Assembly (NCBI GenBank): GCA_965655095.1
Contig: OZ296648.1
Location: forward strand, 18,724,001 to 18,788,000
Origin: Haplodiscus bocki
Taxonomy: Eukaryota
Direction: 5' to 3'
Length of the DNA stretch: 64,000 nt
The notes below the pieces were generated by a model that was not told where the DNA came from, searched no databases, and saw nothing but the letters and a program-made list of their open reading frames with translations. The translations under genes and the position numbers were made by a program. Within the stretch, counting starts at the first letter, position 1. Each line of letters begins with the position of its first letter. This document shows, in pieces, positions 25,896 through 61,519 of the stretch.

Positions 25896-26866
25896 CTACT
25901 CAGTTACAGAAACTCAGTTATTCTTATTCATTTATATGCAATTAAGAGGCGCTATAATATTTCATTCCTCTGATATTTTAAATCCAATTGAAATATTATA
26001 GCGTTTCATACTTACTGCTATGTAAATTTACAAGAATTGAGTGAGTTCTGTACACTTGTTATCAGACGTATTCGTAGTATTGTGGCCCCTTCAAAAATCA
26101 GCTATATTTAGTCGATTTGTTAACTAGTTTTCCTTTGGTGCAAGTGTTGCGAAGTACAGCATCACCTCTGTTTTAATTCTGTTGAAAACTTGCATTTTTT
26201 GACGTCATCAGAGAGTCTAGTCATCTTGTGTAAAAAGTCAAAAATGGCCTTTCCAGGACCTTTGTCAGGTTGTTATTTTCGTGTTCTAAAAAGGGCTAAT
26301 TTTTGAACATGTTTTGAGGAAAGGAACGACAGGGTCCTCAAATGTCATGTTTGACTAATCAATGTTTTGAATATAAGATTATGTGGGTGGCAAAGTGTCC
26401 AATTTTGAGTTGCTTACTGTGCAGATCTCTTGAACACTTGGCTAAAAAGACATAATTGGGAGATCAACTGTTCGAGTATGAGGCATTGTGACAGGTGCTT
26501 TTCTCAATGCAACTTTTGGAACGAACTTTTGATTGACAGCTGGTGTAGTATTTGTAAAAGTGTCAATCACATCTCTGATCATGGTTTCAAATGTCTTTCG
26601 GGATCTTTGATCTCAACTGACAAGTCAGAATGTGTTACGAAGTTCCGCTTCGCTTTTGCGTGCATTTTTTTTGTGGTAAAACTCATTTTTTCAAAATCAC
26701 TGAATCTCGGCATTAAAAACACTCAGAGCGCAACTGCGAAAAACTTTTCTCCCGTGTTATGGATATGACGGCTAAAAATAATCCGGTTTGGCCGTTCAAT
26801 GTTATTCCAGCCTTTGAGTTTATTAATTGACCTACATTTTCAGATATTGAAGTTGGGGGGATTCCG

Positions 26867-27108
26867 ATGAAAAGTGGAAATTCTTTCCGAACCCTTTTGA
26901 GGCATGAGGTCCCTCAGGAATTCCAGGAAGAGTTTGTGGAAACAGGGTTCAGACCAGTGAATAGGCCTTTGTATTATTACCTATGCACAGTATTCACGAA
27001 ACACAACGAGACAGCTAATGTGTGGACGCATCTACTACCCTTCCTAATATTCCTTAGACATTTTTTGCAAATATTAGGAGAAAATAAAGCGGCGTCATTC
27101 CAGCAGAA
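26867..27108 (+). CDS. PAQR-family membrane progestin receptor-like protein, coding exon 1 of 3
   Basis: VP..F.E.FV.TGFRP and HNETANVWTH motifs. Phase-2 donor GTTAGT at 27109. The joined CDS is 990 nt (329 aa). Confidence 0.9.
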
Positions 27109-27157
27109 GTTAGTTAAATTTGAAATAAAATGTTAGAATTCAGTACTGAATTCTGTC

Positions 27158-27345
27158 AGTAGTATTAGGGGGGGGGGGGGGGTTTAGTGCTATTTTGACT
27201 CCTTTGCAAATGTTGCACATTTAGAAACGTTTTGCTGAATTTTGACAAACGAAACTACTTTGACAGCTTGCTGATAAGTGAATCCACTAAAGGCAGCTCA
27301 AATTGGACTTGACAGCTGCCTGACAGCTAAATACACATTGAGTTA
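27158..27345 (+). repeat. Left TIR of element 2
   Basis: AGTAGTATTA-polyG-TTAGTGCTATTTTGAC.CCTTTGCA...TGATAAGTGAA.CCAC...TGACAGCTG matches the reverse complement of 41380-41552. Confidence 0.9.
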
Positions 27346-27784
27346 ATTTTATCTGCGCCCAGTTCAAATGAGGCAAATCTACTGAATTTAATATAACCAT
27401 TATGTAAAAAAGTTTCATAACTAACCTTTAGGTTGGCATGCGGCAATACCCAGTAAAATAACGAATTTTTAGGATCGAAGTAAAATCAAGAAAATTGGTA
27501 ACGTGGTATACAGAGGTAAAATACTAGTTTTACCTCTGCATACCACAAAATTGACTGCTTCGAAGAGTTTCTAGCACAGACTCCAACACGCACGGCAGCC
27601 ACCGTTGGTGCCGCAGATTGCAACCAACAACATGAGACACCGGGCCTGTGCTAGAAATTCTTTTGTATTACTTTAATATTACCGAAAACTCCACAAAAGA
27701 GGAAAATAAAAATTACATAACCGAGATAAGAGTATCTGCTGGCAATTCCAGTAGCTGTGTGCCATTTACTTGAACGCCTCCGCG

Positions 27785-28558
27785 ATGACAAGTATCTTTC
27801 GTGAAATTCCAGGCAATTTCTATTACCTGATATTCTACTGTGAAGAGAATTTCGAAGGCCACCCACTTCCACCACCTTCAAAGACTGCAAAATTATATGC
27901 TGAAACGAATGAAGCCGAATTACCAGGAACACTAAATGAATTCCTTACAAAACTAGTAGCTTCAACGAGCTGTGAATACACTCTAAGACTTCACGCTCAT
28001 GACTGCGAAGATATCTGCTCGGTGATAACAGAGCCCCATTTTCATTTACTGTTTTACATCAGAGTTTCGTTGGCACGGAAAACTATTTCAAAAACACTGT
28101 TGCCCTGACGCTCGGGAACAAAAATGAACTCAGAGACTAAGGTTATGCTGTAGTGTCACATATCCAAAAATATGTTTGAAAAAGGAAATAACGGCTTCAG
28201 CAAAGACCCTCCGAATGTACGGCGACAGGCTGAAAGCCTCTCGGGTAACTTCCGACTTGGGATGTCAATTTAAAGTGATTTGGGAGTTCCAACCAGAATG
28301 CTATTCACCATTCGGTTGCATAGACGACAAAAAAGAGTTGCTTTTTTGTGTAAGAAACTACAGGAACTACAAAAATCCGAAGCAGTTTTCAAAGATTCGG
28401 TTGTGGACTTCATCGACATTCTCATGCGTGGTTTTGGGACAATGGAGGCTTCACATCACAACAGCATACTGAAAGTCGACTTGGGTTGTTCCAATGCTCA
28501 ATGTCAATGTTTCGAATTCCTTGAAGCGCAAAACTCAAGCATTCCATTCTACAGTTGA
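27785..28558 (+). pseudogene. Maverick ORF with an HUH (Rep_2-like) motif, frameshifted
   Basis: FYYLIFYCE...LRLHAHD...EPHFHLLFY; C-terminal CSNAQCQC. Confidence 0.45.
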
Positions 28559-29372
28559 GACGATTTGAACTATCATTCAAATTTATTCACTTTTGTTGAT
28601 GAGAACACTCAATTTTCTTGAACCATTTTAAATTGAAACTTCAATCAAAACGGTCGCTTTTTACCTAATATCAGAGTAATACACCATGCACAGAATTCTA
28701 ACTGCGCAAGAACTAAATGATACTCTGAATAAGATAACATTTCTGTTTCCCAAAAACACTCGACGCAAAAAATGCATTTTTAGCCGTTTGTTACAGTTTG
28801 AACAACGAAATAAATATGCGGTACGTCAGTGAATTCGCCGAGTTTGGAGGACTCATAGGCCCTGGTAACAGCACTTTGGATTTTTTTTCAAATGTTTCAA
28901 AGTGTTTCGGCTTCATGCAATTTTTCATGATGCTTTTGCTTTCATGAAAAAAGTTATAATGTTGGACCTGGTTACGTTTAAGCAATGTCGAAGAAACCAA
29001 TTTTCGCGAACAGTATATTTCTAGGACCTATCACTGGTTTAGCATATTGGCTTGGGATGGAATTCTACAAAAGCTCAGAATACAGAGGCTTTTCACTTTA
29101 ATCATTTTCAGTTCAGCTTCCACAGATGTCAGTCGTGCATTCCTACGTGGAGACATCCATTTCTTTTCCCATTTCGAGTAACACAAACCTGACTCGATGA
29201 ATAAATCCTAGAACGACTTTAGTCTGTTTGGAGCGGCCAGCACTTGCGAGTTGAAAAAATCGATATAATCTAAATCGGATAAATTTGGATTTCACAGAGC
29301 TGCAACGACTTCACCATATTTTAGGTGTTTTACTAAATTTGGCAGGTTATCAGTTTACTTTTATCAACAAAC

Positions 29373-29666
29373 ATGACAAAGAGCCTCACCACTGATGATT
29401 TTCGTGAATCGATCAACATTGAAAACGTTATTTTTGACGAGCAGAAGAAAGAGAGATCTTCCTTTGGGGCAAAATTATGCTGCCTCGAAAAGACTACATG
29501 CAACAGGGTTTTTTTCATTTTGACACTTCACTATTCCATCATTTTTGTGGTTGTTTTGTTCAGTATTGGTTTCTTGACCTTCAATTTTAAAACCGACTAT
29601 CATTCTGGAGTGGTAGCATTGTTATCGGCTTGCATTGGATATATCATACCAGGCCCAAAAGCATGA
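29373..29666 (+). CDS. Small two-TM membrane protein (element 2), intact
   Basis: 97 aa with two hydrophobic segments, ending CIGYIIPGP. Its stop overlaps the ATPase start (ATGA). Confidence 0.75.
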   Translation: MTKSLTTDDFRESINIENVIFDEQKKERSSFGAKLCCLEKTTCNRVFFILTLHYSIIFVVVLFSIGFLTFNFKTDYHSGVVALLSACIGYIIPGPKA

Positions 29667-30337
29667 ACAAAAAAATTAATACCGACCCTCACTGCTTTCT
29701 GTCGGTCATTGGTCCGGGTGGATGTGGTAAAACTCAACTGGTCTCACGGATACTCCTCAACCAAAAGATCATTTTCAAACCCTGCTTCGAGAAATTTTTG
29801 TATTTTTATAAGCATTTTCAAACTGATTACGAATCGCTTCTATTGGGATGCACACGTGAAAAAATTTCAATGGAATTTCATCAAGGACTTCAATGGACAG
29901 CGGTTGACAAGAGTGAGGCTGAGAAGTTAAAAACACTAGTAGTTGTCGACGATCTCTATCAAGATGCTTGCGAAGATGAAACGTTCCTTAACTTGGTTGT
30001 TGCTGGAAGACATCGGAACATACACTTGATGACCCTGAGACATAACATTTACCAACCTGCAAAAAATTCAAAAATGATAGATCTTAGCGTAACACAAATG
30101 ATTCTTTTCAAAATTCCTCGAGACGTTGAACAAATTGGGGTACTGGGTTGACAAATGGGTGACAGAAAACTTCTGGAGGCTTATAAAAGAGCTACGTTAA
30201 AACCTTTTGGTCATTTACTGATTGATTTGGATCCACAAACGCATCCCAAACTGAAATACTGTTCAAATTGTAGCGGAGACCAACCTAGTGTTTTTTCATA
30301 TTTCTACAACCCTAACAAAAGAGATAGTCAAATATGA
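29663..30337 (+). pseudogene. A32/FtsK-family packaging ATPase (element 2)
   Basis: Walker A GPGGCGKT, Walker B LVVVDD, AGRH and KPFGHLLIDL. One in-frame TGA at 30149. Confidence 0.92.
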
Positions 30338-30735
30338 ATCAGCACAACTTTTATATTCTTGAACTGTTCAGTAAATTTAAACCTGTCTTAAAACAGTCAT
30401 TTCTTTTACATTGTCCCACTGAAATCATCAAGCTTTTCTGCAATTGTCTTTTTGACGTTGTACATGGCCAAAATAAAATGAGTGCAGACGTTTCAGCAAA
30501 AGAACTGAAGAGGCATGAAACCAGTATTGCAATTATCTGTAAAAAGAATAGCGGAATTACGAAAAAGCGTCAACTTCTAGCTAGCGGAAGAGGTTTTAAA
30601 CTTCTGAAACTGATCGATTTTTTTGTTCTCAATCATTTGAAGAAACGACTCGAAATTAAGCAGGAGCATGAAAGAATTTGTGTTGATCACGTTGGACGAA
30701 TACAAGTCCCTAATTTCTTCCAAAAATCAATATAA
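30334..30735 (+). CDS. Conserved small Polinton protein
   Basis: Homologous to 9663-9965 (C..E.I...C.C...V..G). Confidence 0.6.
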   Translation: MNQHNFYILELFSKFKPVLKQSFLLHCPTEIIKLFCNCLFDVVHGQNKMSADVSAKELKRHETSIAIICKKNSGITKKRQLLASGRGFKLLKLIDFFVLNHLKKRLEIKQEHERICVDHVGRIQVPNFFQKSI

Positions 30736-31250
30736 TCACGAAAAAACATCCCTCTCGGCATGACAGGACACAACTAGGTCAGAAGACACTCTGAACTCTC
30801 CGACTGATTTGCCAGACAAAAACAATTCCCTGTTCGACAACGAAAAACTCTGCACCCAATTAAATTTGAATTCTAGACTGAAACGAGCACAAATACGGAA
30901 TGAAATAAGTTCTGATGACGCCCTAGCTGACCGGGCCAAAACATTAGCAAAAACGGACCGAATTGTTCTAGATTTATTGTCCTCAGGACTATCTGGTGGA
31001 AAAATTGAGCGGGCAAGGCAGATTCTCCAAAAAGTCGATGAGTGCAATGTCATATCGATCGATCGTAACTCCAGTCGACGGATTCTTCATGGTCGAGACC
31101 TAGGTTTGATGGTATTTGATTTTTTGAATGATTTACAAACAACCGCAAAAAACCTGAATGAAGGAACCCTAGATCTAGGAAGACGGTGAAAATTGCCAAA
31201 TTTTTTAGTTGCAAATACGCATGCAAAACGCGTAGTAACAGAAGTGGCCG
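30668..31250 (+). pseudogene. Conserved Polinton protein upstream of the integrase
   Basis: MKEFVLIT...ISID...ILHGRDLGL...F...L...FLVAN; counterpart of 9967-10359. Confidence 0.5.
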
Positions 31251-31572
31251 ACTATGATTACAACGGTAGAGATGGAAATGGAGGTTGCTCCGCAGTCAAG
31301 TGGCTGCGATTATACTAAGCCGGTGAGCGTAGCTAATTCATTTAACAAGAGACACTTTTCCCAGATATTTGAATGTTCAAGGATCAGAAATGAGGCACAG
31401 AAAAACTGCTGGTGGAACAAAAGTCAAGGGAAAAGTAAAGTACTTCTGTGGAATTTGCGCGAAAGAGTTAGGCAAAGGTTCACGTCAAAAACTTTCTATA
31501 TGATTCAACATTTGTGGTTGGGTACATTTCAATTGCAGCGCTCTTCAACGGGTCGATGACTATAAAAAGACT

Positions 31573-32609
31573 TTGGACTTTCTCTGTTCAAAGTGTTCGG
31601 TGACACGGAAACTTGTCGATCCCACAGCGGAGTCCTCAGCCTACAGCAAAATACATAGCGTTTACACGTCTTGCAACAACCCAGCTGCTTTCGCCGGTAG
31701 AAATGCTCTCAAGAAAAAGTCGAAATGCAGTTACAGACAAGTTGAAAATTATCTAAATCCGAGTGAGACCTAAACCAAAATTCAAACAAACCAGAAATTG
31801 CTTCCGGTTGAAGGTCCAGAGTTTCCGATTGAATGAAATTTGGTCCGTTGATTTGGCCGACATGCAGAAACTATCCCGACATAACCACGGAATTAATTTT
31901 ATTTTTGTAGCAGTAGACACATTGAGCCGCTTTGTCTGGGCGCTGCCATTGAGAAAAGACTGCAACAGAATGTAAAAATGCGTTGCAAAAAATCATGGAA
32001 GCCCTTCGCGTGCGAAATTACAGTTCAAGAGAATTGATGAAACCCAAGTTTCTACGGCTCAATTCAAAAACTGAACCGAAACCTGAAAAAGTTTGGGTGG
32101 ATAAGGACCGAGTGTTTGCCGGTGAATTTTCTCAATTCTGCAGAGAAAACGATATCGAACTTTATTCGACACATAGTGAAACCAAGTCGGCGTTTGCTGA
32201 GCGAAACATCCGATCTTTAAAAGCAATAATTTTCAAATTTATGCTCGAAACCAACACAGACACGTATATCGACATTTTACAGCAATTCGTAAACGTGATT
32301 AATTGTCGAGTGAATCGCACCACGAGGCTAGCGCCAAAAGACGTTGAAAAAAGTGATGTACCGTATCTGATTTCCCTTCAAACTTCCAATCAAATTCGCG
32401 AGCCCAAATACAAGATCGGCCAGCAAGTTCTAATTAAACGAAAAATCGAAACATTTCCTAGAGGGTACCGCAATCAGTTTACAGAGGACGTTTTCACCAT
32501 TACGGCAATTCATACATTGAGCCCTCCCACATACAGCATAAGAGAAGCCAGCAATCAGTTGATCCAAGGAAAATTCTACGAATGTGAACTGACCCCCTTT
32601 CAAAAATAG
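31573..32609 (+). pseudogene. Polinton rve integrase (element 2)
   Basis: EIWSVDLADM, VAVDTLSRF, VWVDK, SETKSAFAERNIRSLK and IQGKFYE.EL motifs; frameshifted. Confidence 0.92.
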
Positions 32610-32649
32610 CCTATTTCAAATTTTTCTAACCGACAACTCATCAAATGAA

Positions 32650-33596
32650 ATGTCATTGAGGGAGTTTACTGTAAATTTAGTGTCCAACGCATCCATGGCG
32701 ACGTTTCCTGACAACACGCTGGCCCATTTCACATCTCTATTACCCCAGCAACTTAGCCTAACTCGTTTCTGGGTAGTGGCGTTAGCCGAAATTGCATGGC
32801 CGGCTGCAATACAAAACATAACATCTGGCCATTTCAAGTATCGAGACGCGCCAGAAGCACGAAAGGACAACGATATAGCAAAAACAGCAGCACAGACACT
32901 CGAAAAAGAAAGCGGAATGGTAGGCCATACAGAATGCTTACAATGTGTGAACTACCAATACGTCCTGTTCAAGAGGCTATCATTGAAAAAGTCGGAAGCA
33001 TCAAACCAGGTGTCTATCTAACCATTGATCAAATTCTGCGTTCAATTTGCTAGAAAATTTTTATAGGGCACGTTGAGGACAACTTTCTCCTCTCGTGGAA
33101 ACTGGATGCCGCATCAGATGCTCTGAAACTCTACTATGAAGTTAGTGAACAAGAGTGTATATTTTTGGAAACCATATCCAAAGACTTGCAGAACGTTTTG
33201 GGGATGAAAACACTGATTGACTGTTCTGAACTAGGCAAAACCAACAGGCAAGCTAACAACTCAGTGCTATCCAAAACCACCGGAAAGCTTCCAATAGACC
33301 TCACTGGTGGCTGCAACACAATTTTTGTATATAGCGCTTTGGTGCAAAATGAAATTTTGGGAGACAGTCGAACTGCTTTGTTGCGAGCCATTCCATTGAC
33401 AGAGAACCTGGCTACTGGGATTCAGCAGCAGCAGAAATATCGGACATTCGGCAACCTCCACTGGCGCCGCGTCGTAAAGTCTAGCATAGAGTATATTTCA
33501 GTGGCGCTCCGGAATGAAACAGGCCACTTGGTTCCGTTTTTCAGTCGTGGTCGGACAAACTTGACTTTGCATTTTCGACAGCGCCTTGAACAATGA
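32650..33596 (+). pseudogene. Minor capsid (penton-like) protein (element 2)
   Basis: LVSNASM..FPDNTLAHF...LP...W.VALAEI, IFVYS.LV...ILGD....LLRAIP and LTLHFR motifs. Confidence 0.85.
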
Positions 33597-33787
33597 GAAA
33601 GAAGACTACTAAACTGAATTTCATCATCATCATCATAATAATAATAATAATAATAATCTTCGTCTTCAACTACCGGCAAAAGGTCTGTACCAAGATCATC
33701 ATCATCGTCAACATCATTACTTTGCAAAACAGTTCAATAAAACAGTCGGACAAAGTGTTACAGGCTACTGCTGCTCCTCTCTTTCAA

Positions 33788-34315
33788 ATGGAGGCACCTT
33801 ATGATTTTCAAATTCGACAGCAACATCAGCAATCTACTTTTCACGGACCAGCGCGACAGTTTGGCTCTGGCGGCATGGGTGCGTTTGCTCTGCGAATGGG
33901 TCGAGTGACGATGCCGTTGGTGAAAAAGTATCTTTTGCCCGTGGCCAAAGAGTTTGGCAAAAACTTAGTTTCTTCATTTGTTCCCGTTTTCTCAAACATT
34001 ATTTCTGGTAAAAAGAGACCTCGGAAAGCTGCTCGAGATGTTTTGAAGCATTCAGCAAACAAAACAATTGCCAAGGCCACCGAGACCCGAGGCGTCGCCG
34101 CGGGCGCCGGAGCGGTTGCTACCGCAGCAGGCGGCGGGCCGGGCGGGCGCGCCAAACGCCGCGGGCGACAGGGCACCCCCAGCTAGAAAAAAAAGTATCA
34201 AAGGCCGCAGCTAATCTTCAGCGGGCATTCCTCCAGTCGGAAAAAACGTCATTCTGAAAGAGTCCCACCAAGAAAAGTCGGTCCGATATTTTATCCGAAA
34301 TCAACTTTAGTTCAT
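33788..34315 (+). pseudogene. Basic core-like protein (element 2)
   Basis: RQFGSGGMG...GR..MPLVKKY..PVAK with an Arg/Ala/Gly-rich tail; homologous to 12092-12447. Confidence 0.6.
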
Positions 34316-34341
34316 AAAAAGAGGCTCCTGGAATATCCACA

Positions 34342-35704
34342 ATGGCAGCAAGTAACAACAATGCAACAGCCTTATTCAGTCGATCAACAGAGATTGCAAA
34401 TCCGGTGACACACAGTGCGCTTGAATTTTTCGAAAGACCAAGCGTTTTGATTAATTACGAGGGATCTTTCGATCAAGAAGTTTTTCTCCACGTAGGCTGC
34501 CCCGGACCCCAATTGGATTTTTTTGTAACCGCTGAAAATAAAAATTGTATCGATCTGAACCGCATTTGCTTGGCTCTAGAAGTGTGCCTCTACCAACCTG
34601 ATGGCACAGAAGAGGTCAAGCCAGCAGATGTTGACATGACGTTTGCAAACAACACGTTAGATTCTTTGTTTTCACACGTTGGGATGTTCTTGAACGGAAA
34701 ATTGGTTTCTAGTCGCAATAAAAACGATCACCACTTAGCATTCTTGGAAACGTAATTGACCACAGACCTTGCCAGTAAACTTACGTGGGCCCCGTGTCAA
34801 GGTTATGAGTACAGAGCGAACGACAAGGCGAACCAAGAAGTGACAGAGAGCTTAACGAGTTCAGAAAGGGCGAACAATTTAATCTCGAGCTGTATGGAGC
34901 ACTACATACAGACTTTTTAGATTGTGAACGGCTTTTGTTGCCGGGAGTTACACTCCAGTTCCGTTTTTACAGATCCCCAAACAATTGCGCAATCGAGACC
35001 GTGGATACGTGGGAGGCAGCAGACATCAAGCGAATTGACCAGACACCGTACGCAGTAGTCATTGCAAGAGCTTCTCTGTTTGTCAACAAAGTTGTCTTGT
35101 CAGATGCTGTCAAAGTCAGCATTGAAAGAGCTTTGACCAAAAGCGCAGCTGTCTACCCATATTTTGAAAGTCTAAACAAAAGTTTCATCATTCAGGCTGG
35201 ACAAAATTGCTTTCTCAAAAAGAATATCTTCGATACCGAACCTGTGCGGAGACTGACTCCTTGTGTGGTCAAAAACAAATTTTTCCGTGGATCAAAAATT
35301 GAATCCACGCCTTTCCAATACAAAAAAATTTCAATTGAGCAAAATCGAAATTCAGCGAGGCAACGTCGTTCCAATTTCTGGCACACCGATTGATACCACC
35401 AAAATCACTCGCCTGTTCAACACAATTTGTGCTCTTGGTTTCACAAGAGGTGGCAATGGAATCGAAATGGCCGATTTTGGAGAGAATCACTACTTTTTTG
35501 GTTTTCGATTTGACTTCGTCAAGAGAAGCTGGTAAAGCTCTCACTTCATTTCCACAGCTCACAGGTGCCGGTATCACATTGAAGTTGAGCTTTGCAGATG
35601 CACTCAGTCATCCGGTAGAGCTTTTTCTTATCGGTGAACGCTTCAGTCAAATCTTTATTGACGCCATGCGCAACATTTCCAAAAACAGCCTCATCAATGG
35701 ATAA
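34342..35704 (+). pseudogene. Major capsid protein (element 2)
   Basis: HSALEFFE, NNTL.SLFS.V...LNG, LLLPGV, NIF...PVRRL and VFDLT motifs. Confidence 0.88.
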
Positions 35705-36310
35705 TTCAACTCTTGCTGAACTAGCCCAAACATGTTGCGCTTCATCGAGATCAAAATTTGTTGGAGTGTGGTCGGCCGACAATTTTGGTTTGATCTATTC
35801 TTTGCTCTGCCGCCGACAAAAAGCTACGATGCAGCAAAAAATGAAATCAAAATAAACGACTCCGTCTTACACGTCTAATCCTACTCCATTATAAACACTT
35901 CACCAGGCGCGAAGCGAATTGGCTTCTTTTACTTCTCTTGTGTGATCAACAACAGCAGAGCAACATTCGAGAGGAAAGAACTTTCTTTTTCTGTGTTTGG
36001 GATCCTTCGGGCCAACCTAAACAACGCTGTCAATTATTCTATGATCAATTGCTGAATATTTCGAAAGAAACTCAATTTAAAGTATATCAAGATCTCAGAT
36101 TGCGAATCCAAGCTCCTCATTCAAACACTTGTGGTCTCTATTGCCTTTACATTACACACTATTTGATTCAAAAAAACTGAACAAGAATCAGCAAGCTGTG
36201 GCAATTTCGATTCCTTTATTTTGTCGGTATTCCAGCCACTGAAGAACTTACAAGATTTGGATTTAGTTTTATTTTGCAATGAACACTATAATACAAACCT
36301 TTTGTACAAA
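35697..36310 (+). pseudogene. Adenain-type cysteine protease (element 2)
   Basis: FVGVWSAD, INTS, WDP.G and IQAPHSNTCGLYCLY motifs. Confidence 0.8.
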
Positions 36311-37067
36311 ATAATTTAGCTTTGAAATCCCACACCAGTTTTTCAAACATTTTGAGCCAAAGTTAAAGATATTAGTTTTCTCTTCAGGACTGTTACTGTG
36401 CAAGTTCAGGTTAATTCTGTTCCTATAATTTTGGTTTTTGGAGCGTTTCCTTTTTCTTTGGAGAGCACACTGGGACATCACAATCGTCACTATCATAAGA
36501 ATTTCCAGTGTCCTCAGCCTCAATGAAGGGACAGCTAGTAAGGCGTTTAGAATCTAGACTCGCTTCACCGTCAGTGAGATTGTCAAAATCCACACATTGA
36601 GATTCTTCGTCAGAATCAAGGTCATCTTTTTCATTGAGATAGTACCCAGGGTCAGGGCCAGCTGAACATGAAAGAAAATTATTACCTAAATAGAAATTTC
36701 AGTTGGAATCACTTTTTTCACACTCCAGACAAATGTGTCTCGTCAAAGTGATGTTTTGCCCTATCAAATTGTGTAGGAGTAACTCACAAAAAGAGCTGAC
36801 AGCTTTCCATGCCTCTGCAAAGGGTCCGTCATTGTTGTCATGAAGCCTGCTGACGTTAGAACTGGTTTGAGCCTCCTTGTCTTGATTGCTTGCCGTAGAA
36901 ATAAACAATGTCACTATCATTATCATCATCATCACCACCAAACTTAGACGAATCGGATTCAGAAATAGAGTCAATATCAACTGAACAAAAAAAGAACGTT
37001 TCGCACATTTGTCAACTGAGACTCTCCCTTGTCAATTTGTAACTTACTGGAAATTTGCTTCGGATTA

Positions 37068-40000
37068 CTAAGAGTAATGTCCGTAGGCTAGAGAAGACAC
37101 AGTATCGTCTAAGATGTAGCTTTTGTCGTCGAAACAACTGAGAGCAACTTTGTTCACAGCATTGACCACAACATGATGCCCAACCGATCTTAGTTGCGTC
37201 ATTTCTTTACGTAGAACAGATTTTGATAGTAAGCATTTCTTGAAGAGACTGTGCTGTAAAGTTCGTTTGACGGATTTCTGAACACCTTTTGCGCTTTGTT
37301 TAGTTCCACCCAGATAATCAATGCTGCATAATTTCGATCTTAGGCAAACTATTTCTTTCTAGACTTTTCTATTAAGCTCATCAGTCATCGTAAGTGGTAC
37401 TTTGTTGTTTGTTTTGTCGTGAAGGAAGTGGTCTTCCGGATAATCCGAAAGGTCGAGGAGGTGCTTGAAAGTTGACATGTCTTCATACAAATCGGCAGTC
37501 TTTATTCTGTAGAGTAAGGAGTCAGTGTCTTTTTAAACTACTTTCAAACGATCTGATCCATAACGAGGAAGCATCTCTTCGTAATGAAACTTGTACAAGG
37601 AGAGCTTTAAGAGATCCAGAATAGTTGCACCCGCTGGTGTAGGTTTGTTCCAAAATACCGAGGAAGCCCGAAGAGAAACACACAAGATTATTGCTGATAA
37701 TTTTGAAGTTCTTGAACGCAGCTCGTTGGATGAAGGTTTCAGCTTGCGCTTCGGTTGTAACGAATCGCAAACTACCACGTCTCCGTAAATCCTGCATAGT
37801 CTTGCCGAAGCAAGCGTTCGACATCAGTTTGTAGAAGTTTTTTTTCGAAATCATCAGAAGCTTGCTTACGCATTGTGGTGTTTTCAGATATGTGGGCTCC
37901 GAGCCATTTTGATTGCTGGAACTTCACTATCCGATGGAGTTTCGTGACTGTCAAACCATGATGTACATAAAACTTCAAGTTTTCGTAATGACAAATGCAG
38001 TGATACTTGTCTCATGAAGTTTCCACAATTTTTTCAGCTGCGGAACTTACGTTGAAACCGAAAGAATTAGCGTAATCTGATCTCCAATTTATCGGAATTT
38101 TGAGCTTTTCTGGCGCTAGGGAAAGGTCATTGTGGACGTCGTGAATTGCAGGTGGGTACTCAAGGTCCACCTCAACAAAGACACCGACAGGAGAGTCTGC
38201 AGGTGTTGTGAGTATTTCCGAGAGACTGACATCAGTGCACCATTCATATCCCCCGACTGGCATTTGTTTTTTCATAGTACCAGCATAAAGTGACGTTAAC
38301 GTCAAAGAAAGCCCCAACGGTAGATTCTTCCTCTGAATTGAAGTTTTCGAGGTGATTCTTATTTGCTTCGAAATGACGAAGGGCTCCCAAACCATTAATT
38401 CGACCGCGAATTCCTTTCTCAAAGAACAAGAGCTGATCAATGTCCTGCAATAATTTCAATTTCACGCCAGTAGTAATGAGCATTGCATCCCAACATAAGG
38501 CTGGGTGCTGAATAAAAGTGGGCTGGATCCAACTTGTATACTTGCATACAAACCTCTCTGAACTTTTGGAAAATGTCAGCCAAAAAACACATCAGTCCGT
38601 AAATAGATATTATGGTAATCTCCTAAGTTTTGACATTTAAAGGCGTTATAAACTCCCAAGGCAAAGTTATGCTGTTTTTTGGTGACTTCAATCGATTTCG
38701 TCAAAGTGTTGCACCCTAGAGGACCATGAGGTGGGAAAGGCTCATTAAATTTCTCGAAACTGTCCAGATAGTTGTACGGGAAGAAGCCCTTCTTTGTGAG
38801 CTTCTCAAAAAGGTTATCTCCAATCTTTGGGAAGCCAGCTCTCAACAATTTGAAGTCACTCTTGTCGACGGTTTTCGCTAACGAGTCCAAACTTTGCGAC
38901 ATGAACTGGAAACTATCCAAAAATCGTAGAGAATGATAGAGCACAACATTTTGGCCTGCCTTGCTTTTGAAACGTTCCATCGGTATATCCAAAGTGAAAG
39001 AAATGTAAGTTTCATCATTTTTTGCAATAGCCGAAAGCTTTTCTCCGTCGTTGAGTTTCAAATATTTTATAATTTGATGGGCGTCATATCGTGATAAATT
39101 GGGAAAAAGGACTGGCAAGAATCGCGTGGTATTGGCACGAAGGTTACACTGAGAGTGAGCAACGCCAAATATTTCTCCAGTCAAATGACAATCGTGAATA
39201 ACTCATTCACTCAACACTTTTCCCACACAAGCAGCAAAGGATCTCTTCTTTGTTCATCAAGCTGTTTCTGTCATCTGTAGAGATCTTTAATTGTTTGATT
39301 TTTCGTTTCTCGGCATAACACCACGCTGACCAAGATCGAATTAAATCCATAAGACGAGTGATAGTCTTTCCCTTTGTAGATCTTCTCCCTCACCATCCCT
39401 TTGTAGATCTTCTCCCTCACCACAGCGTTACCTAAACAGACAACTCATTAATTCCTCGGAAAGCAAAAAACGTTACCTAGAAGCAGCAGGTATTTTGTTA
39501 AGCACATGGAATACTTTGTATTTGAGAAAAGGGTGAAAACTAACATCTTTCCTCCACGAGGATGGCGCCGAAACTGCATGGATACTGTCTTTCAATTTCT
39601 TTTGTGTTGGAACCAAGTCTACTGGCATCTCCAGAGCGGACATCGTTGGCTTCGAGATCCGCGTACACAAACGGAACCCGGTTTTTTGCCAATTCTGGAA
39701 CTCAACATGTGGCGAGGAAACAGGCATTCGATATTCAAGAGGTGCGTTTGACTCACAAAAATTTTTGTGTCTTCTGTAATTTCTCTTTATTATTGGTTGA
39801 AAGCAGTTTGAACAGAATTTAGACTTGGAGCCGTGCTTTCTTTTCTTTTCTGATCGCGTAAGGCGCTGAAGCAAATTGGAGAAGTTTTTGATTAGACAAT
39901 AATGAGTTTTGCAAACACTGACCAAGCGGAGTAAATTTACCCGCCGTTTAGAGCTTTTGTTGTTGCTGTAAAACACGGCAACCAATTTACCATTCTCCAG

Positions 40001-40967
40001 TTGATATACATTAGTAGAGACACTTTTTTTTCTCGAAAGACGCTATACTAGACAAGGACATTGGCATTGGACTTGAGTTGAACTTTAGCTTTTTCACGTT
40101 TTCTTTCTGAGATTTTGTGTAGGTGGCTCTACCGTTGAATGGAAAAATTGCGGCTGCAACGGAATACAAAAAACAAAAGTTGTCGTTTTTGTTTTTCACA
40201 TTCAAAAAACTTTTCGAGAGGCCTTTCAATAAATCAGGTGTATCAATGTAAGACGATCCGCTGAGGGTTTGGCAAGTTGCAGTTTTCACTTCCACGGACT
40301 GCAGGCAGTCTATTTTCCAACCAGAGGCACATGAAGCGAAAACTTTGAGCTTCGACATTAGTTGATCTACGTGGTCGAGATATTCTTTATCTGTGATGTT
40401 GTTTGCGATTCTCGCCAGGAACGAATTAAAAAATGCTGTGACTTCGTCATTGTTTAATGGCTTCACCAGGTCGACGGCAATGGTAAAGCCAATTTTCATA
40501 TTGGAAACTTTCTGAAGTTCAGCATCATGAAATCTAATATGCTCTGTTGCTGGGAAAGTAATTAATTGAATGGGTCAATGGAAAGCTCGTCTTTTGGCAA
40601 GTTCAAGCAATGCGTTTTGAATCTGTTATTCACAGCCACAGTCGTTGCTTCGACTTGAGCAGGGTTCCCGTTTCCTTTATGTGTGAGATTCTCCTCGGCT
40701 AGTCCATGTTCAGCTAACTCGTGATCATGGAGTGTCTTTTCCATAGCAAAGAGTAGAGGGCAGAAAAAACATGTGAACGTTTGAAGACTCATGTTGATTT
40801 CTCAAATGCCTGATAAGATTACAGCTCTTAGTGAATTGAGCAGCACATTCTCCTAACTGGAAAAAGATAGCTGTTTTGATTATGTTCTGTTGGTGCTTAG
40901 TTCTGAGGTGATTGTTGAGGAAACGCTGAGTTTTGAATAAATTACCACAAATTTCACAGCATAACAT
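37068..40967 (-). pseudogene. Protein-primed DNA polymerase B (element 2), frameshifted
   Basis: N-terminal C2H2 fingers, OTU-like segment (NDNFCFLYSV...HYCLIKN), endonuclease VII-like (HDCH.TG...AHSQCNL), FLDSFQFM, KGFFPY, motif A SLYAG.M, motif B KLMSNACFGK, motif C DTDS, and C-terminal SCFDDK...LAYGH. Confidence 0.93.
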
Positions 40968-41379
40968 GATTCTAGAATAAATGCTGTTCATAGGAAGAGA
41001 GAGTTTTCCACATGAAGTCAGATTTTTTGATACGTTTTTGAAACAAAACACAAAACTCCTACTCCGCTTAAAATTTCACAAGATGTATCAATCGAAAATA
41101 ACGAAAAAGAAAACCCTCTCTCTAAAAATTTTCTCGGAATTTTTCGAGGAATTTGATTCCCTCCGAGTAAGTCAATTTTGATTTTCCTCCATGTTTCGAA
41201 CAACAGTTTAAGTGGAGATGCTATTTGGCCATTATAATTGAATTCGTTGAGTTTCAGTTGGTTTGGAATAACGTTAATACGAAAATGCTTTCGGCCGTTC
41301 AATGCATAATATCTATGGAATTAAGCATTTGGTGTCAATTTTGTTGGTTTTCATGATGGGTCAGGATGAACGGATCGAA

Positions 41380-41552
41380 ATTGGTACCAATGTATATTCG
41401 CTTGACAGCCAGCTGTCATTTCTATTTTGAGTGCGGTTTTGGTGGCTTCACTTATCATTAGACTGTCAATATTCTGCAGGACTTTCAAAATTGTTCAAAA
41501 ACTGCAAAGGCGTCAAAATAGCACTAACACCCCCCCCCCTTGTAATACTACT
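41380..41552 (-). repeat. Right TIR of element 2
   Basis: Reverse complement of the left TIR, ending TAATACTACT. Confidence 0.9.
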
Positions 41553-44919: not shown

Positions 44920-45625
44920 ATCACGACTTTTCGCTCAAAATTTTTTGTCTCACAGTACCGAAAAATTTTGTTGCGGAACACTTCAGTGCATCAGAAAATT
45001 TCGGGTATCAAAAAATATTATGCATAAGAAGGGGATATCACTAAACTCCGTTGAAAAATTATTGTCTCACAAGACCGAAAAAAACTTCGCTAGCGAACCA
45101 TTCTGTGTTTCAGAAAATTTCTGGTAGGGAAAAATATTTTATGGATGGGGGGGGGGGGTATCACGATTTTCCGTCGAAGTTTTTGTCTCACTGTACCGAA
45201 ATATTTCATTGGAGAACACTTTGGTGTTTCAGAAAAATTCTTTCATCGAAAATTTTCATGCATTGGAGGGGGGGGGGCGGTATCACGGCTTTTGTCGAAA
45301 CTTTTTGTCTAACAGTACCGAAACGAAAAGTTTTGTAAAGGAACCCTTCCGTTTTCAGGAAATTTTCTGGTATCGAAAAAATTTATGGATAAGTGGGGGC
45401 ATATCACGATTTTCAGTCAAAATTTTTGTCTCACAGTGCCGAAAAATTTCGTGGGCATCCCTTCAATGTTTCAGAAAATTTGGGGTATCGAAAAATTTTT
45501 TGCATACTAGGGGTATCACGTTTTTCCGTCGAAAATTTCAAAATTTTTTGTCTCACAGTGCCGAAAAACATCGTAAAGGAACCCTTTAGTGTTTCACTAA
45601 TTTCGGGCATCAAAAAATGCTAAGG
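44920..45625 (+). repeat. ~120-bp tandem satellite (TTTTGTCTCACAGTACCGAAAAA units)
   Basis: About six units. The same family is inverted at 60690-61340. Confidence 0.85.
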
Positions 45626-46893
45626 GTAAATCGTAGAAATATTTGGCACGACAGAGACTCGAACCTCAAACCTACTGCTTGAGAACGCTGTTGTCCTAAC
45701 CCTACTGCTGTCATTTATTTTTGAATGAAAAGTTGGGAGTTTTGCACTGAAAAAAAGAGAAAAAAATCGACCCTACTGAATGAATAATTTTTCTTGCATA
45801 TTACATATGCTGCGAATAATTGAAAAAAAAACTTGTTACCAGTTTTTCTGCGTTGTTTTGAAAATTGAGATTTTTTTTAGTTAAGAAGTTTTAGTTTTGT
45901 GGAGCTGATTCTAAAAAGTGCCCAACTGATAACCAGAAAAGTAGAAACGAGATAGACCTTCAGTATCTTATTTGTGCCAGAGGTCAGTGGTTGCGTTGAA
46001 TATCCACATTTTAATCATGAATATGCTCAGGAACCACTCACCTGGGCTTGACGTGATAAAATATTAACTTAATTTAATATCAACAGTCACAAACCGACGG
46101 AATGCAATACGCTGACTTTTTCCCCTGAGGATATTTTCTCCACCACACGGGATAGCAGTTTACTGAACTCAAGGTGGGTTTGTAGACTCATCAAGCCACC
46201 AAAAATTTTTCAACGCATTCGTCCCGCCTCTGCAGTAGCACTAAGAAGTTGAGCTCAGTATTGATTTTTGTTCACTGCAGTTTTGAAGCAACATTTGTTC
46301 AACAATCCTAACTAAAATGGAGCTAGTGAGCCGTGTCTCGGCTTTTCAAAACTCTGACAATTTTTCTGACGGCATTGTCGAAAGAACGAAGAGGGGAAGT
46401 GAAAAAAGCAAGGCAATTAAAAAGCGAGAATAAACGAACGATTGTGTTCGGTTATGGCGTTAGGATGATCATGCCGATTGAAGAAAGCGAGTGCGTTCAT
46501 TCATTCAGTGTGACTCCGAAGCGAAACCAAATGAAAACTATTTTTGATTCTACAAAAACAGCATGAAAAGATTTTTGAAAAATATTCGGAAGTTGAAATC
46601 CGTACCCTTACTTGATCATCAGCTGGATTTGCCCTAATTTCTAGTTTTTATGCATCAAAGTAAGTTAGGCCTGTAGGTTTTTTTCTAAGATCACAAAATC
46701 AACACAGCCAATAGATCACAGGAGCAAATGCTTCTGACAGACTGACAATTCAACCTGCCGATCTGGCAGAAGGGCGTGCAAGTCAAATAAACTTAGTTTT
46801 CGGTCATTGGCCATAGTATATTTTTTGTCCAAAATTTGAGTGATTGAATTATGACAGAAGTGGGCATTTTTTGATAAATGCCCAATTGTTTAG

Positions 46894-47369: not shown

Positions 47370-50300
47370 TTTGCAGAAAGTCTATGAAATAATTCCATCA
47401 CCTTATTGGAATCGTGGCTACTAACGTGCATGGTATTATCCAGAGAATTACCAAATTTTTACTTGTATCGACTCTTTTAAAATTACCCATCTCTCAAATT
47501 GCTCCGTCTTTTGCTCTAAATAGTTTCCAGATTTGTGAAACATAAAATGTTGACTGAAAAGTATTTGAAAACGTTTCTTTTGTCAGCTGTTCCCTAACTT
47601 AGTAAAAATACGAACAAGACGCCCGGCTACCACCGGGATATTTTCCGGCTCTAACTTTGTTTAAAATGCGTTTTATATGAAAAAGAGCATTTTACAGCAA
47701 ATTTTTCAAAAAACCTCTAAATTTCGGTTGAAAAAAGGCGTTATGAAGAAATGCTACCCTTTTATACGCATTCTATAACAAATTTGATACTTTTTGCTGA
47801 TTTGAAAGTTCCGAATTTTCAAAGAACCTACATTGCGGTCGACAAAAGGCGTTTTCAAGAAAATACTACTTTAGACACACATTTGCTGTAATTGCGTTCT
47901 AACAAAATCCAAAGTTGCAAATCGTGCAATTGGCATTTAAACGTAAAAAAATGCACACGTGCTAGGAAAAGATTTTTCTTCCACATTATAAATATGGCGG
48001 AAAATAATCATTCTTGGCTAATAGTTTGTTTAACTTTACTTTTACTCCGGCTACCAAACATTTTACATGTACTTTACGAAGGTACAGCGTTAGGCAGCCA
48101 AGGAAGGCCTCAACCAAAAGCAGCAAAATAGACTTGAGATGCAGCCTTTCATTCCTTGTCGAGAGCTTTTGTTTTCAGAGGAAGCCAAGAGCCCATCATA
48201 TTTGAGTTTTCAGCGTTTTTGCCCTCCTGCCTCAGCTGCTAAAATGTATGATTATTCTTCACTGCCTGACTCCGGCCCTTCCTTCCTTCTAAATTCAGTT
48301 CTGTGTATATACTACGTCGAAATGACAATGATTTACAGCTTCGACACCTGCTTGATTGAAGAGCCATCATCAGGCATGATTGCATTGATGTTTTGAGAGT
48401 ATTGCTTTTTTGAAAATCAGGTTACATAAAGGGTATTTCCATGAAGTTTCTACATGGGAGTAGTCAAGAGAGCTCTCAGTACATACCAGTCTAAAGCGCC
48501 GACAGTGTTGATTGACTGCATTTTATGGAATTCGTCATTCTAATTTTCGGTGCTACTTTTACTTCTAACTTGAAACGTTTGAAATTTTTGGCTGCTGTGT
48601 CAAATTAATTATCCTAATGAATTATCCTACTGAAATGAATATAATCCCCAAGGTTGTTGCCTAAACGTCTGTTTTACAAGCAATACAATTTTTGAGATGT
48701 AGTGGAATCAGAAGTATTAAAGGAGGTCCGTCTATGCATATATTCAGGACCTCATGAATGTCAAATTTGTTCTTTCTGGCTAATATAGCTTCGAATAAGA
48801 AATGTTAGAATGCAACATGTTTCGATACTTCAAGTATCAACAACAGTGATGTATATTTTTATTTATTTAAAGGTCTTTTTAATTTGAAGGAAAGCAAGAA
48901 ATTTAAAGGAATCCTTTGAAATTTTTGCCAGAAGCAGAAAAATTGACCAAATTTTGAAAATTTGAACTCACGCTAAAACCATTATATAAGCTATTTTTCG
49001 GTTAATTGATTTTTAATCATGGCGTCAACTACGCAAAATTCAAGTGTTGATTTAGCATGTAATAAGGATTAAAATTTGGAAGTTTGACATTTTAGATCTT
49101 TCTGAATTAAACAGAATCCTATATGAATTGGAGATAAAGAACCGTGTCTCAGCTTTTCAAATATCAAAATCCTTCTGACTTCATTGCGGAAGGAACGAAG
49201 CGAGCAAGTGAAAATAGCTAGACAATAAAAAGCGAGTATTCAAAACTCAGTGATGTGTGTCGGTTATGGCGTCAGGTTGATCATGCCGAATGAAGAAAAC
49301 GAGTGAGTTCATCAAGTCCTCCGCTACATTCACTCAGTCAGCGTGATAAGTGACTCCAAAGCCGAAAACAATTTTTAAAATGTTTTTGAGCAGATTGAAA
49401 ATTTAATCTGGCAGAAGGGTTTGCTAGTTTTAAATCAAAAGATTTGAATTTTTCTTCGAGAGTATCAAAAATTTAAAGGGTCATTTGAACTTTCCTTTAA
49501 ATGATCATAAAAATGTACATCACACTGATCATCAGGTACTCGGAAAACATCCTCGATGTTCACGAGATTATCCTGTCAATGTCCCATGGCGTTTTTGAAA
49601 TGGTTTCCCCGGGTTTGCAGGCGTCTGTTTTTATGAACGCACTGGGTTGGTTTCCCTGGATATGCGATCTTATTCTCAAGGTAGATTGCGAAAGTGTTGG
49701 GACCGAGCATTTCAAATAATGCTACACCATACTAAGATTCCAAGTGGTGAAAAAAAGCGAGTTTTTAACCACCATTGAGGCTGCAATTTTTGTTCGAAAA
49801 CACTCTCCTCTTAGTTGAACATTTAAATTTTGAAATCACAAGTCTTTGAGACTTTGAAAGCAATGTTCTATTGGCTAAGAAACTTGTAAGGATGCTCTGG
49901 AGGGCAGATTCTTTTTCACGCTACTGTTTTGTCATCTTTGATGGAAAAAAATTTTATTTTAACCATCGTGCCGTTGGTTTCGTAACTCTTCATCATTGAC
50001 AAAAACATGAGATGAAAATTAGCAAGACGCGCGACTACCACTGGTATTTTTTTGCCGTTCAACTGTTGAAAATGCTTTTTAGAAAGCAATGAGCATTTCT
50101 ATGAAAAATAACCTATAGAGCTAAGTTGTCACCTTCTCCTAATTCCAAATAATCAGATTTTTGCAGAAAACGCTAAATTTTGGTAGGAAAATGGCATTCT
50201 CAAGAAAAAATACGCATTCTACAACAAATCTGCTGCTTCTTGAAATCTAAAAAATTACTGGTTTTTTAAGGCATCATGTGAAACTTAATAACTGTAAGAT

Positions 50301-55962: not shown

Positions 55963-58900
55963 GTTAGTTTTGCAAAAGTTTATTGATATAACCTGAAGCT
56001 TCAATATCCGTTACAGTTTGGTTATTGTTTGTATAAGATGTTAACTGATGATATAACTCATACAGTAGATTCCGTTTCTAAAGTCAATACGAGTAAAAAT
56101 CGTAACTGTGGTAAGGGTAAATTACACCTGATTGAACGTCCATCAATTAGTTAAAATGTCACTTCAGATCGGTTACTGGTTGTTAATATCGAAGCCGAAG
56201 AATTTCGATGTTATAGTGACATGCCTTGTTATTTTTTCAGACATTTGTGGCGTCTAAATTATAGAGAAATTGTAAACTAGCTAAATATATCAACCCACTG
56301 CATTATATTCAGCCAGCTGATTTTATCATTGTATATAATAGCATTTGAAATCAGCTGGTTTCATATGTACTTAGTGGCATTTAGAAACCTGTGTTTGAGG
56401 CTATATTCGGTTTATCACAATTTATCACTCAATTCAACTCACTGAGCTAGATATGTTATTTTCCAATTTTTAGACGGTTTCTTTTGCCATTGAAATCGCC
56501 TTTACACCTGCTAAACCATAATAGTTCGGCACAAAAATGCAATGTTTCAAAAACTTGCTTGAAAAAATTGTGCGACGAAACAAGATTTTTTGTTTTTTAT
56601 GGCAGGCAAAATAAACTCACTCTGCAATTTATCCGGGACTTTTGCCCTTCAAATCAACATCGTTTGCAATGGTTCATACTGTATTGCTTTGGAATTGCAC
56701 TTTATTTTGTTGAATTTTGGGGAATAATGAAAAATGATGTTATTGTAAAGCTGCCACAATTAGCCAAATTCGCATTTTTTTCGTCAGTTTTTTCACTTTT
56801 CATGTTCAAACCAGATTTCTTTCAATTATTAATTCATATATCAATGTCGATTCACAATTTCTTGTAAATTTTGCAGAAATATGAATGAAAATTACGCAGT
56901 TTTTTTTCAATATCTTAAATCGGCCAAATTTCGCCAACTTTGTTGTTTTCGGCGGATTTTTGTCCTTATGCCCTTCAAATAGATTTCTGGCTATCATCTT
57001 TTTATCATTGATATCAAATTATAATTTCTGGTTAATTTTGCGGATCTATGAAAATTGTTGCAAAAGTTCATTCCAAGTTCTAGCGCATGTAAGTAAAGTT
57101 GGATATCTTCGGTTTTTTCATGGATTTTCGCTTTTTGCCAAAAGATATCTTCGGTTTTTTCATGGATTTTCGCTTTTTGCCAAAAAATAGCTTTCAGTAC
57201 TAATTCAATTTAAACCGACTTAACGACACAGTTCCCCATTTTCGGAATTTTTCCAACTGCTACAAATAAGAAAATTGTGGTTCAGAACTCCCGAAAATGC
57301 AATAATAGAGTAATACTTCGATTTTCCGCCAGCATTCGTGTACCGTCTTTCCCGACGGTTGACTCAGGGTTGCGGTCAAAAGAGAGTAGGCCCGAGCTGC
57401 TTTATCTAATTTTCAACCGAAAAGCATCCGAAATAATTTGTAATTAAAAACAATTTCTAATTGTATTGGCTGGCAAACAACAACATTTCAACAGGTTTTA
57501 GCAATATTATTGTTTTGAAGCCTACTAATATAGGCAGTAGAGTTCGATATTTCCTTGAATTGATGGAAGTTGATAGTTAGATGAAAAATTTTGAAGCTTG
57601 AGTGAATAGTTACCAAAAATGTGGCGGTGGTTTATCAGGGACCAAAACTGCAATTTTTTTGCGCATATTCTTTAGATTATGAAAGCAAAATTTTCCTCTC
57701 AAATAGGTGGGTTTTTTACCCGATGTTTGCCAATTGAGCTCGCGCTAAAAACGATATTGGCCTGCGTTTGGCCAAAAAGGCTAAAAAGCCCAAAATAGCC
57801 AAAGTGACCAGAATTGCGAAAAATTCAAAATGGCGAAAAAGCCAAAGTTGCGAAAATGGCCACAATTGTTACAATTGCGAAGATTACCAAAATTGCCGAG
57901 ACTGAATTAGTAAGATTTCTCAAAACGTCAAAATTTGGGGTTTTTTTGAAAAAAATAGATGGGTTTTCGAAAAAAACTTGAATTTTATTCAAAATCGTTA
58001 AAGGTGGCAAATTTGCTCTAGAATGCGTATCAAATGGTTTTATTTCTTAAAAATGTCTTCCGCCATATTTATGAGATTTTTTTTGGAAAAAAAAATCAAA
58101 ACTTTCAACGTCGGAAAATTAGAAACTATGATGAAGAAAGAGTGTTTTTCGAGAGAAAAAACGTTTTCATCTTTTTAAAAGCCTTGTTTACAAAAATGGG
58201 TATGCGCAAAATATGCCGGTGGTAGCCGGGCGTCTTGTATCAATTCAACTAGCGGAGACGGATAATCGATTCTGGCGATTATTTACTCCTAGCCAAAAAA
58301 CTTGGCAACTGTATCATTTTAGTAATGCGAGGGTGGCGGATAATCAAGGGATTCCTGTGGTTGTCTTTGGTCATTGGTTTTTTTCACTGTGGACGATGCT
58401 TTTTCCTATGGGTGCAAAATCAAGATATATTGGGAATATCTTCAACTAATTTGACTGGGAAGTTTTTGAAATCGCCGTTTTTGGAAAAACCAATCTTGTG
58501 TTCATTTTCGGAACTAATTGAATTGTGAGTCAGTTTTAAAAAAAATCATACGCCTCGACCATGGTCATTGCCTTAGAAGTGAAAAAAAACTTCGTCAGAA
58601 CTCATTAGCATTCCAAGGAAATTTTCAGGTTCTTCACTTTTTGCCAGTTTTCAGAAACAGAAAATTGTCAAAATTCAAAATTTCCCTTTCCCTATGTTAT
58701 TGCAATTCAGCAAAATCTCAGCCCTTTTTGGGGGGTCTTTTCAATCATGTACTTGTTAGGCTAAGATGACATTTCCGTTCTCCGGTCATAGCGTCATTTG
58801 GATATTACTTCATTTTTTTGCCACCCCTGGGCGTTATATCAGGATTTTACTGTTGTAGGAAACATTTTGCTCAGGATGTATTATAGTAGCTAGTATTATA

Positions 58901-58986
58901 ATATAATACCTAATTGTTTAAAAAAAGAGTTACCAAAAGTTCTCCTGTTTGTGTTCATTTTTTGGACACTTCTGTTCCGTTGACAG

Positions 58987-60689: not shown

Positions 60690-61340
60690 CTTGTACGAAA
60701 TTTTTCGGCTCTGTGGGACAAATAATTTTTTGTCCAAAAATTCGTGATACTACCCCCTCCCCTTATGTATAAAATAATGTACAAATAAAAAGCAGAAAAA
60801 CCAAAGGGTGCCCCTACGATTTTTTTCGGCGCTCTGAGACGACAAAAATTCGTCCAGAATTCCTGATACCGCTTCTTATGTATGAATTTCTTCGATACCA
60901 GAAACTTTCCGAAACACCAAAAGAGCCCCCCCTCACGAATTTTAACTCGAAAAGTTTTCGACATTTTTGGGTGATACCCCCCTCTATGGTTTACCAAAAA
61001 ATTTGAGCGACCGACTGATGGCCAACGCCAGAAATTCCAGAAACACCCAGAACTTTTCATAGACAAAAAAATTCGTGCAAAAATCGTGATACCCCCCCTA
61101 TGTATAAACTTTTTCGACATCAGAAACTTTCAGAAACACCAAAGGGTTCCCTACGAATTTTTTTGTTACTGTTGGACAAAATTTTTTTACGAAAGTCGTG
61201 ATAACCCCCTTATGCATAAGGTTTTTCGATAACGCAAACTCTCCCATACACCAAAAGGGCCCTCTCATGAATTTTTTTCGGTATTGTGATACAAAAAGTT
61301 TTCGACATTTTCCCGTGATATGGTTTACCAAAATTTTCGC
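60690..61340 (-). repeat. Inverted copy of the ~120-bp satellite family
   Basis: TTTTTCGG..CTGTG.GACAAAA and GTGATACCCCCC units are reverse complements of those at 44920-45625. Confidence 0.8.
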
Positions 61341-61519
61341 GCCTAGTCCAACTTTGAGCTGTTTCCAGCTTGTTGTCACACTACTAGTTTTGGTGCACTA
61401 CTTCATGCTCTCCGTTTGAGTATTGTCTGCATTTGAACATTTTATTCGTGCTTTCAGTTGTGTGTGTGAAACGGGTTCTTGAATCATTCTTGTGGTCATC
61501 TGAAAGCTAAAGCTTGAAT

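Follow-up and report, generated by a model that had tools for sequence, protein, structure and literature searches.

We describe here open reading frame 1 (ORF1; 27785..28621, + strand), the first gene of a degraded Maverick/Polinton in a 64,000-nucleotide stretch of the Haplodiscus bocki genome (assembly GCA_965655095.1, contig OZ296648.1, positions 18,724,001 to 18,788,000; here called the window). Within one Maverick clade this gene is conserved and keeps a fixed place next to the terminal inverted repeat (TIR); residues ~10 to 160 of its product are predicted to have the HUH fold of Rep and origin-binding proteins. The reading that we favor, at a probability slightly above one-half, is that ORF1 is a catalytically dead HUH-derived protein that binds the element's own ends sequence-specifically. 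The new feature is a HUH domain, probably disarmed, that a Maverick clade keeps as its first gene.

ORF1 is a conserved gene beside the Maverick terminus

ORF1 starts 627 bp inward of a left end that carries an AGTAGTA terminus, a TIR, and matching flanks, which agrees with a preliminary description of this DNA that had placed it as the first gene of a Maverick. That description had also treated 27785 to 28558 as a single ORF. Comparison with the family profile instead recovered four matching pieces spread over three frames: the frame changes near 28060, 28135, and 28340, an in-frame stop occupies 28556 to 28558, and the family reading runs to near 28621. The window copy is a pseudogene. Naturally open copies are stop-terminated and encode ~283 amino acids (range, 264 to 310).

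The 1.5-Gb genome carrying the element was searched for ORF1, and the best 150 of 364 candidates were scored and listed, many with open frames of 280 to 310 codons; using more distant members as queries, we reached further subfamilies with identity down to ~22%. The left 2.2 kb of the window element shares ~89 to 90% identity with five close relatives. A TIR-type motif lay 592 to 841 bp outward of the gene start in 35 of 41 ORF1 matches, and it was also found at 10/10 and 7/7 loci of distant subfamilies (L068 left out). In the loci read in detail, the gene order was ORF1, a phospholipase A2 (PLA2)-like gene, a small membrane protein gene, and an ATPase gene. We also took the ATPase as an anchor, scoring 150 of 8,078 candidates in the genome and picking 16 stretches out of the 150 on the list, for the most part ones where no ORF1 match had yet been listed; ORF1 lay upstream of the ATPase in 11 of these and not in the other 5. 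Furthermore, ORF1 and ATPase distances across 26 loci were strongly correlated (Spearman 0.85; 0 of 999 permutations as high), as expected of linked genes inherited together.

ORF1 is under purifying selection. Among the three closest subfamilies, dN/dS was 0.17 to 0.30, with both halves of the protein alike; within subfamilies it was 0.35 to 0.72, and deeper pairs were saturated. These values come from 17 naturally open copies, and the choice of open frames biases them downward.

Outside this genome, we searched 1.84 billion representatives with a profile and obtained 101 matches, several of which are own-genome copies. P0124 and P0119 show ~30% identity over long matches to the own genome and have no close match there; thus, they probably come from other organisms. 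No match of this search carried a name or a Pfam domain, and all 10 clusters looked up were unnamed. The most distant homologues are P0111, P0119, P0124, and P0146; no related loci were found in IMG/VR or in JGI metagenomes.

Part of the left end of the element, with a portion of ORF1, was also seen repeated in tandem arrays at C307 ~63 to 70 kb (L088), C4 13.22 to 13.24 Mb (L089 and L090), C1 37.16 to 37.18 Mb (L091 and L092), C12 78.97 Mb (L093), and L111, with periods of ~1838, 3271, 1662, 600, and 1323 bp. The repeat unit takes in the terminus and flanking DNA in C307 and C4. These arrays may represent tandem duplication or an assembly artefact.

Predicted fold and active site of ORF1

The preliminary description had drawn attention to a set of HUH-like motifs in ORF1, and fold and profile tests place this set beyond chance. 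The frame that opens with the ATG at 27785 contains NFYYLIFYCE, LRLHAHD, and EPHFHLLFYI, and the H-F-H is confirmed at 28037 to 28045. On the other hand, "RKTI..LL" lies downstream of the first frame change, out of frame, and is absent from naturally open copies; likewise, neither the Asp of "HAHD" nor the middle His72 is conserved in the family (His72 in 11/78 rows; position 73 differs by cluster). NFYYLIFYCE (27815..27844, +) is the predicted first β-strand, at the motif I position. A predicted metal site at 27992..28045 (+) comprises a histidine triad and a conserved Cys: His70 (27992), Cys78 (28016), and His85 and His87 of the H-F-H.

The structure model predicts a five-stranded sheet, which carries motif I on its first strand and motif II on its third, and a motif III helix. 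The closest folds to the improved model are all sequence-specific origin binders, and the modeled match runs beyond the ferredoxin core, to residues 150 to 163. HUH entries moved to the top of the structure matches once the model improved; a first model (22 sequences, pLDDT 46) had given generic ferredoxin-like matches and was superseded. A search of viral structures gave two unnamed matches with E <0.001 and TM ~0.2, and its named rows, all weak, were parvoviral NS1, microvirus and CRESS Reps, and two densovirus NS2 proteins. The NS2 proteins ranked third and sixth (E 1e-3 and 3e-3; TM ~0.17).

Sequence profiles were compared with 12 aligned pMV158-family plasmid Reps, whose invariant columns include H39, D42, K52, H55, H57, Y99, and H102. 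The RepB active site is described as a histidine triad, Tyr99, His102, and Lys52 (PMC9943647). Full alignments of the ORF1 family gave probabilities of 6.6% (A4) and 46% (A3). The trimmed N-terminal domain reached 43% (E 2.5e-4), beating all 150 column shuffles and all 150 block shuffles, and 18 cluster representatives reached 79% (E 1.7e-5), beating all 357 block shuffles, narrowly (33.3 versus 34.8). In the profile alignment, His70, His85, and His87 fall onto His39, His55, and His57 of the RepB family, and position 135 falls onto Tyr99.

PF01719 had no match in the genome (9 candidates scored; the control was detected in 1 of 14 genomes) and was above its cut-off in 0 of 89 family members. 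Nor was the family identified by Pfam (window pieces and 22 and 89 open homologues), by PHROGs (19 members; best, an unnamed family at E 2.4e-4 in 2 members), by PDB sequence profiles, by plasmid tblastn, or by ESM Atlas (all scores <0.9). A recurring Peptidase_S31 match (E 0.003 to 0.007) fell below the cut-off and was rejected. Altogether, the earlier suggestion of an HUH-like Rep domain is supported in part and was largely right as to structure; the catalytic Tyr is gone, and PF01719 is unmatched.

To count active-site residues, we took the 77 of 89 aligned rows that cover the key positions, which form 18 clusters at 65% identity; the other 12 were dropped for gaps. His70, Cys78, His85, and His87 each predominate in 18/18 clusters and occur together in 67 of the 77 rows. 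Motif II (His-hydrophobic-His), whose conservation had been proposed as a check, is nearly invariant (His85 in 78/80 rows and His87 in 76/80), with F or Y between the two histidines in 13 of the 18 clusters and H, S, or Q in 5. His70, a putative third metal ligand upstream of motif II, is present in 76/78 rows, and Cys78, which the preliminary description did not mention, is almost invariant (73/78). A C-terminal His230...CxCxxC motif, likewise not described before, is present in all 16 clusters that reach that region and forms a predicted zinc site (28454..28519, +, in the window).

The helix equivalent to motif III (28161..28190, +) reads YPKICLKKE in the window copy and has no Tyr in the catalytic register. 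The absence of an evident YxxH/K motif, noted earlier for this copy, holds family-wide: a Tyr at 131 to 138 occurs in 1 of 77 rows, and no Tyr column is common to all 18 clusters. In Rep-class HUH enzymes, the motif III Tyr is required for cleavage and joining (PMC10288648). Since this Tyr is missing, ORF1 is HUH-derived rather than an HUH member in the enzymatic sense, and it likely no longer nicks DNA.

Candidate roles and relation to known systems

According to the favored reading, the old active site would hold a structural zinc through the three histidines and Cys78, with Cys in place of an acidic ligand, and a second zinc would sit in the C-terminal His/CxCxxC domain. ORF1 would bind the TIR or the DNA just inside it with the surface by which RepB, adeno-associated virus (AAV) Rep, T antigen, and E1 contact double-stranded origin DNA. 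Bound ORF1 might then mark the terminus for the protein-primed polymerase; alternatively, it might control a left-end promoter driving the ORF1-to-capsid block. The inactivated HUH origin-binding domain of papovaviruses provides a precedent (PMC13595969).

Two sets of candidate DNA sites lie near the ends. A 44-bp palindrome between the TIR and ORF1 (27503..27546), a candidate operator or binding site, has an inverted-repeat score of 16, compared to 6 to 10 in 22 other 600-bp tiles of the element. TGACAG/CTGTCA occurs three times per terminal 400 bp (7.5 per kb) versus 0.66 per kb inside the element; these repeats could be a host-factor site. Neither the palindrome nor the repeats occur in all subfamilies. 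The palindrome is strong solely in the closest ones, and a universal palindromic site was rejected on this ground. The AGTAGT termini were also considered as a counterpart of a plasmid nick motif, an idea discarded because such termini are general to Mavericks (PMC8097293).

An unlikely alternative is that ORF1 is an active, atypical HUH nuclease that cuts single-stranded DNA at the element ends. Either Tyr128 or Cys78 would serve as a displaced nucleophile, or a metal would activate hydrolysis, and the cut might, for instance, free the element from the chromosome or trim its ends ahead of protein priming. The main argument for this nuclease reading is the retained histidine triad; moreover, Tyr128 at the start of the motif III helix is present in 68/77 rows, Glu136 (75/83 rows) adjoins the catalytic register, and active HUH nucleases are reported in other small double-stranded DNA (dsDNA) viruses with double jelly-roll capsids (mriyaviruses, PMC11253617; Zoravirus and relatives, 10.64898/2026.06.19.733378). 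However, the four most distant of the 18 clusters lack Tyr128 yet keep the His/Cys set, Tyr128 aligns seven residues before RepB Tyr99, and there is no YxxK/H motif. No helicase-fused form was found among proteins of up to 2000 amino acids (nine matches of 222 to 296 amino acids; a weak test), and the termini and 6-bp flanks are consistent with an integrase-made insertion (PMC8097293).

Less probable still is that ORF1 is inactive and HUH-derived but acts independently of the element's own DNA sequence, in nonspecific single-stranded DNA binding during strand-displacement replication, in genome packaging, or in host-protein binding. This would fit the lack of a binding site conserved across subfamilies and the place of ORF1 at the head of a gene block shared with the PLA2-like, ATPase, and putative capsid genes, whereas the origin-binding specificity of all the closest folds and the outstanding palindrome upstream of the gene in the closest subfamilies speak against it. 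Least probable is convergence, i.e., a ferredoxin-like zinc-binding domain with His-x-His on the third strand that does not come from HUH Reps, given the rise of HUH entries after model improvement, a match that passes the ferredoxin core, and an independent profile comparison in which three histidines align in the correct order at the correct spacing and whose score exceeds that of every shuffle.

Building on the favored reading of a sequence-specific end binder, we tentatively propose, as a possibility short of probable, that the clade captured a pMV158-like Rep and converted it, independently of polyomaviruses and papillomaviruses, to a helicase-free origin recognizer with a His3-Cys zinc plug that loads the protein-primed polymerase on the TIRs. 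If true, this would give Polinton replication an element-encoded initiator and would be a second natural case of a nickase turned origin binder, with the metal histidines still in place. If ORF1 binds without nicking, it is an independent parallel to T antigen and E1; if it nicks without the canonical Tyr, it represents new HUH chemistry and a candidate excision step. We know of no experimental demonstration of how Mavericks exit the chromosome or start protein-primed replication, and a selected, conserved HUH-derived gene by the terminus offers a small protein and a 650-bp target. In addition, a family without a Pfam match or source name in the searches made gains a predicted fold, and a gene-flow link is added between rolling-circle replicons and Polintons.

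Compared to the origin-binding domain of pMV158/pE194-family RepB (PF01719; PDB 3DKX), ORF1 lacks the Tyr99/His102 motif, does not conserve the Asp42 position, having instead a conserved Cys, and has an insertion after strand 1. Its C-terminal domain bears a zinc-type motif and gave no match to the RepB oligomerization domain in a profile comparison with nine Rep C termini, where its score of 10.7 was reached by 158 of 437 shuffles. Its host element is linear, integrating, and protein-primed. With the origin-binding domains of polyomavirus large T antigen and papillomavirus E1, ORF1 shares a predicted HUH fold without the catalytic Tyr, but it retains the histidine triad, has no superfamily 3 helicase at 264 to 310 amino acids, and is only 7 to 12% identical. 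Parvovirus Rep/NS1 and CRESS-virus Rep differ in having the catalytic Tyr, an acidic third ligand (PMC10288648), and a fused helicase.

HUH genes are known as rolling-circle initiators in mriyaviruses and related Nucleocytoviricota-like small viruses (PMC11253617; 10.64898/2026.06.19.733378). The mriyavirus and Zoravirus genes resemble ORF1 in being stand-alone HUH genes of small dsDNA viruses with a double jelly-roll capsid and a packaging ATPase; however, they retain motif III, their proposed role is to drive rolling-circle replication, and mriyaviruses have no polymerase, whereas the element here has a protein-primed DNA polymerase B (pPolB) and an integrase and its ORF1 has lost the Tyr. 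The element is closest in kind to adintovirus-type Mavericks/Polintons with a PLA2-like gene, sharing AGTAGT termini, a TIR, a 6-bp target site duplication (TSD), pPolB, integrase, ATPase, and putative capsid-like genes. The eight core genes that the available text of PMC8097293 gives for vertebrate Mavericks do not include ORF1. Likewise, the accessible parts of the literature, including PMC11296320, PMC11071296, and PMC11161782, describe no HUH-derived gene in pPolB Mavericks; the supplements of PMC8502044 ("Adintoc"), Repbase, and subscription papers may hold ORF1, and the HUH tally in Figure 2 of the preprint is outside this scope. ORF1 might belong to the "Adintoc" families that PMC8502044 leaves unannotated.

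The element and the rest of the window

The degraded Maverick spans 14,395 bp (27158..41552) and is delimited by AGTAGTA at 27158 and TACTACT at 41552, a TIR of ~186 bp with 70% identity between the ends (left, 27158..27340, +; right, 41388..41552, −), and a near-perfect 6-bp TSD (TCTGTC/GCTGTC; 5 of 6 bases match). pPolB, integrase, and packaging ATPase are all present, with Pfam matches near or below the cut-off, in broken or related copies. ORF2 (28670..29070, +; broken) is PLA2-like by motif (GLIGPGN...HAIFHDAFG), and it follows ORF1 in every subfamily read. By motif only, it resembles the PLA2X class of alpha adintoviruses described in PMC8502044; an open copy had no Pfam match. The A32-like packaging ATPase (29591..30151, +) is broken and matches Pox_A32 at E 2.3e-4, below the family cut-off. 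A broken integrase (31504..32609, +) was recognized by homology to a relative's open copy, which matches rve at E 1.3e-7. The pPolB region (37068..41075, −) is in pieces, with an N-terminal C2H2 zinc finger (zf-C2H2, E 1.2e-5; DNA_pol_B_2, E 4.8e-4, below the cut-off). Other genes we take to be major and minor capsid and protease genes from their motifs and position; Pfam gave no match.

Just left of the insertion, an open frame at 26831 to 27136 encodes HNETANVWTH, which we take to resemble the beginning of PAQR/HlyIII membrane proteins; the Maverick insertion may lie within or next to a gene of that type. At 44939 to 45637 and 60695 to 61149, six copies of a ~120-bp unit on one side have inverted matches ~15.5 kb away; the two regions are possibly the termini of a DNA transposon that carries subterminal repeats. 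Two inverted pairs at 47614 to 47806 and 57988 to 58238, ~10.2 to 10.6 kb apart, are possibly a second, nested element with terminal repeats. Long open frames at 16236 to 17906 and 23001 to 23675 (556 and 224 codons), in a region of strong negative GC skew, had no Pfam match. A 325-codon frame at 58984 to 59961 gave a weak glycerol-3-phosphate acyltransferase C-terminal match (E 2e-5, just below the cut-off). Finally, an uninterrupted frame at 61511 to 62167 matches ribosomal protein L16/L10e (E 6e-20) and is possibly a retrocopy.
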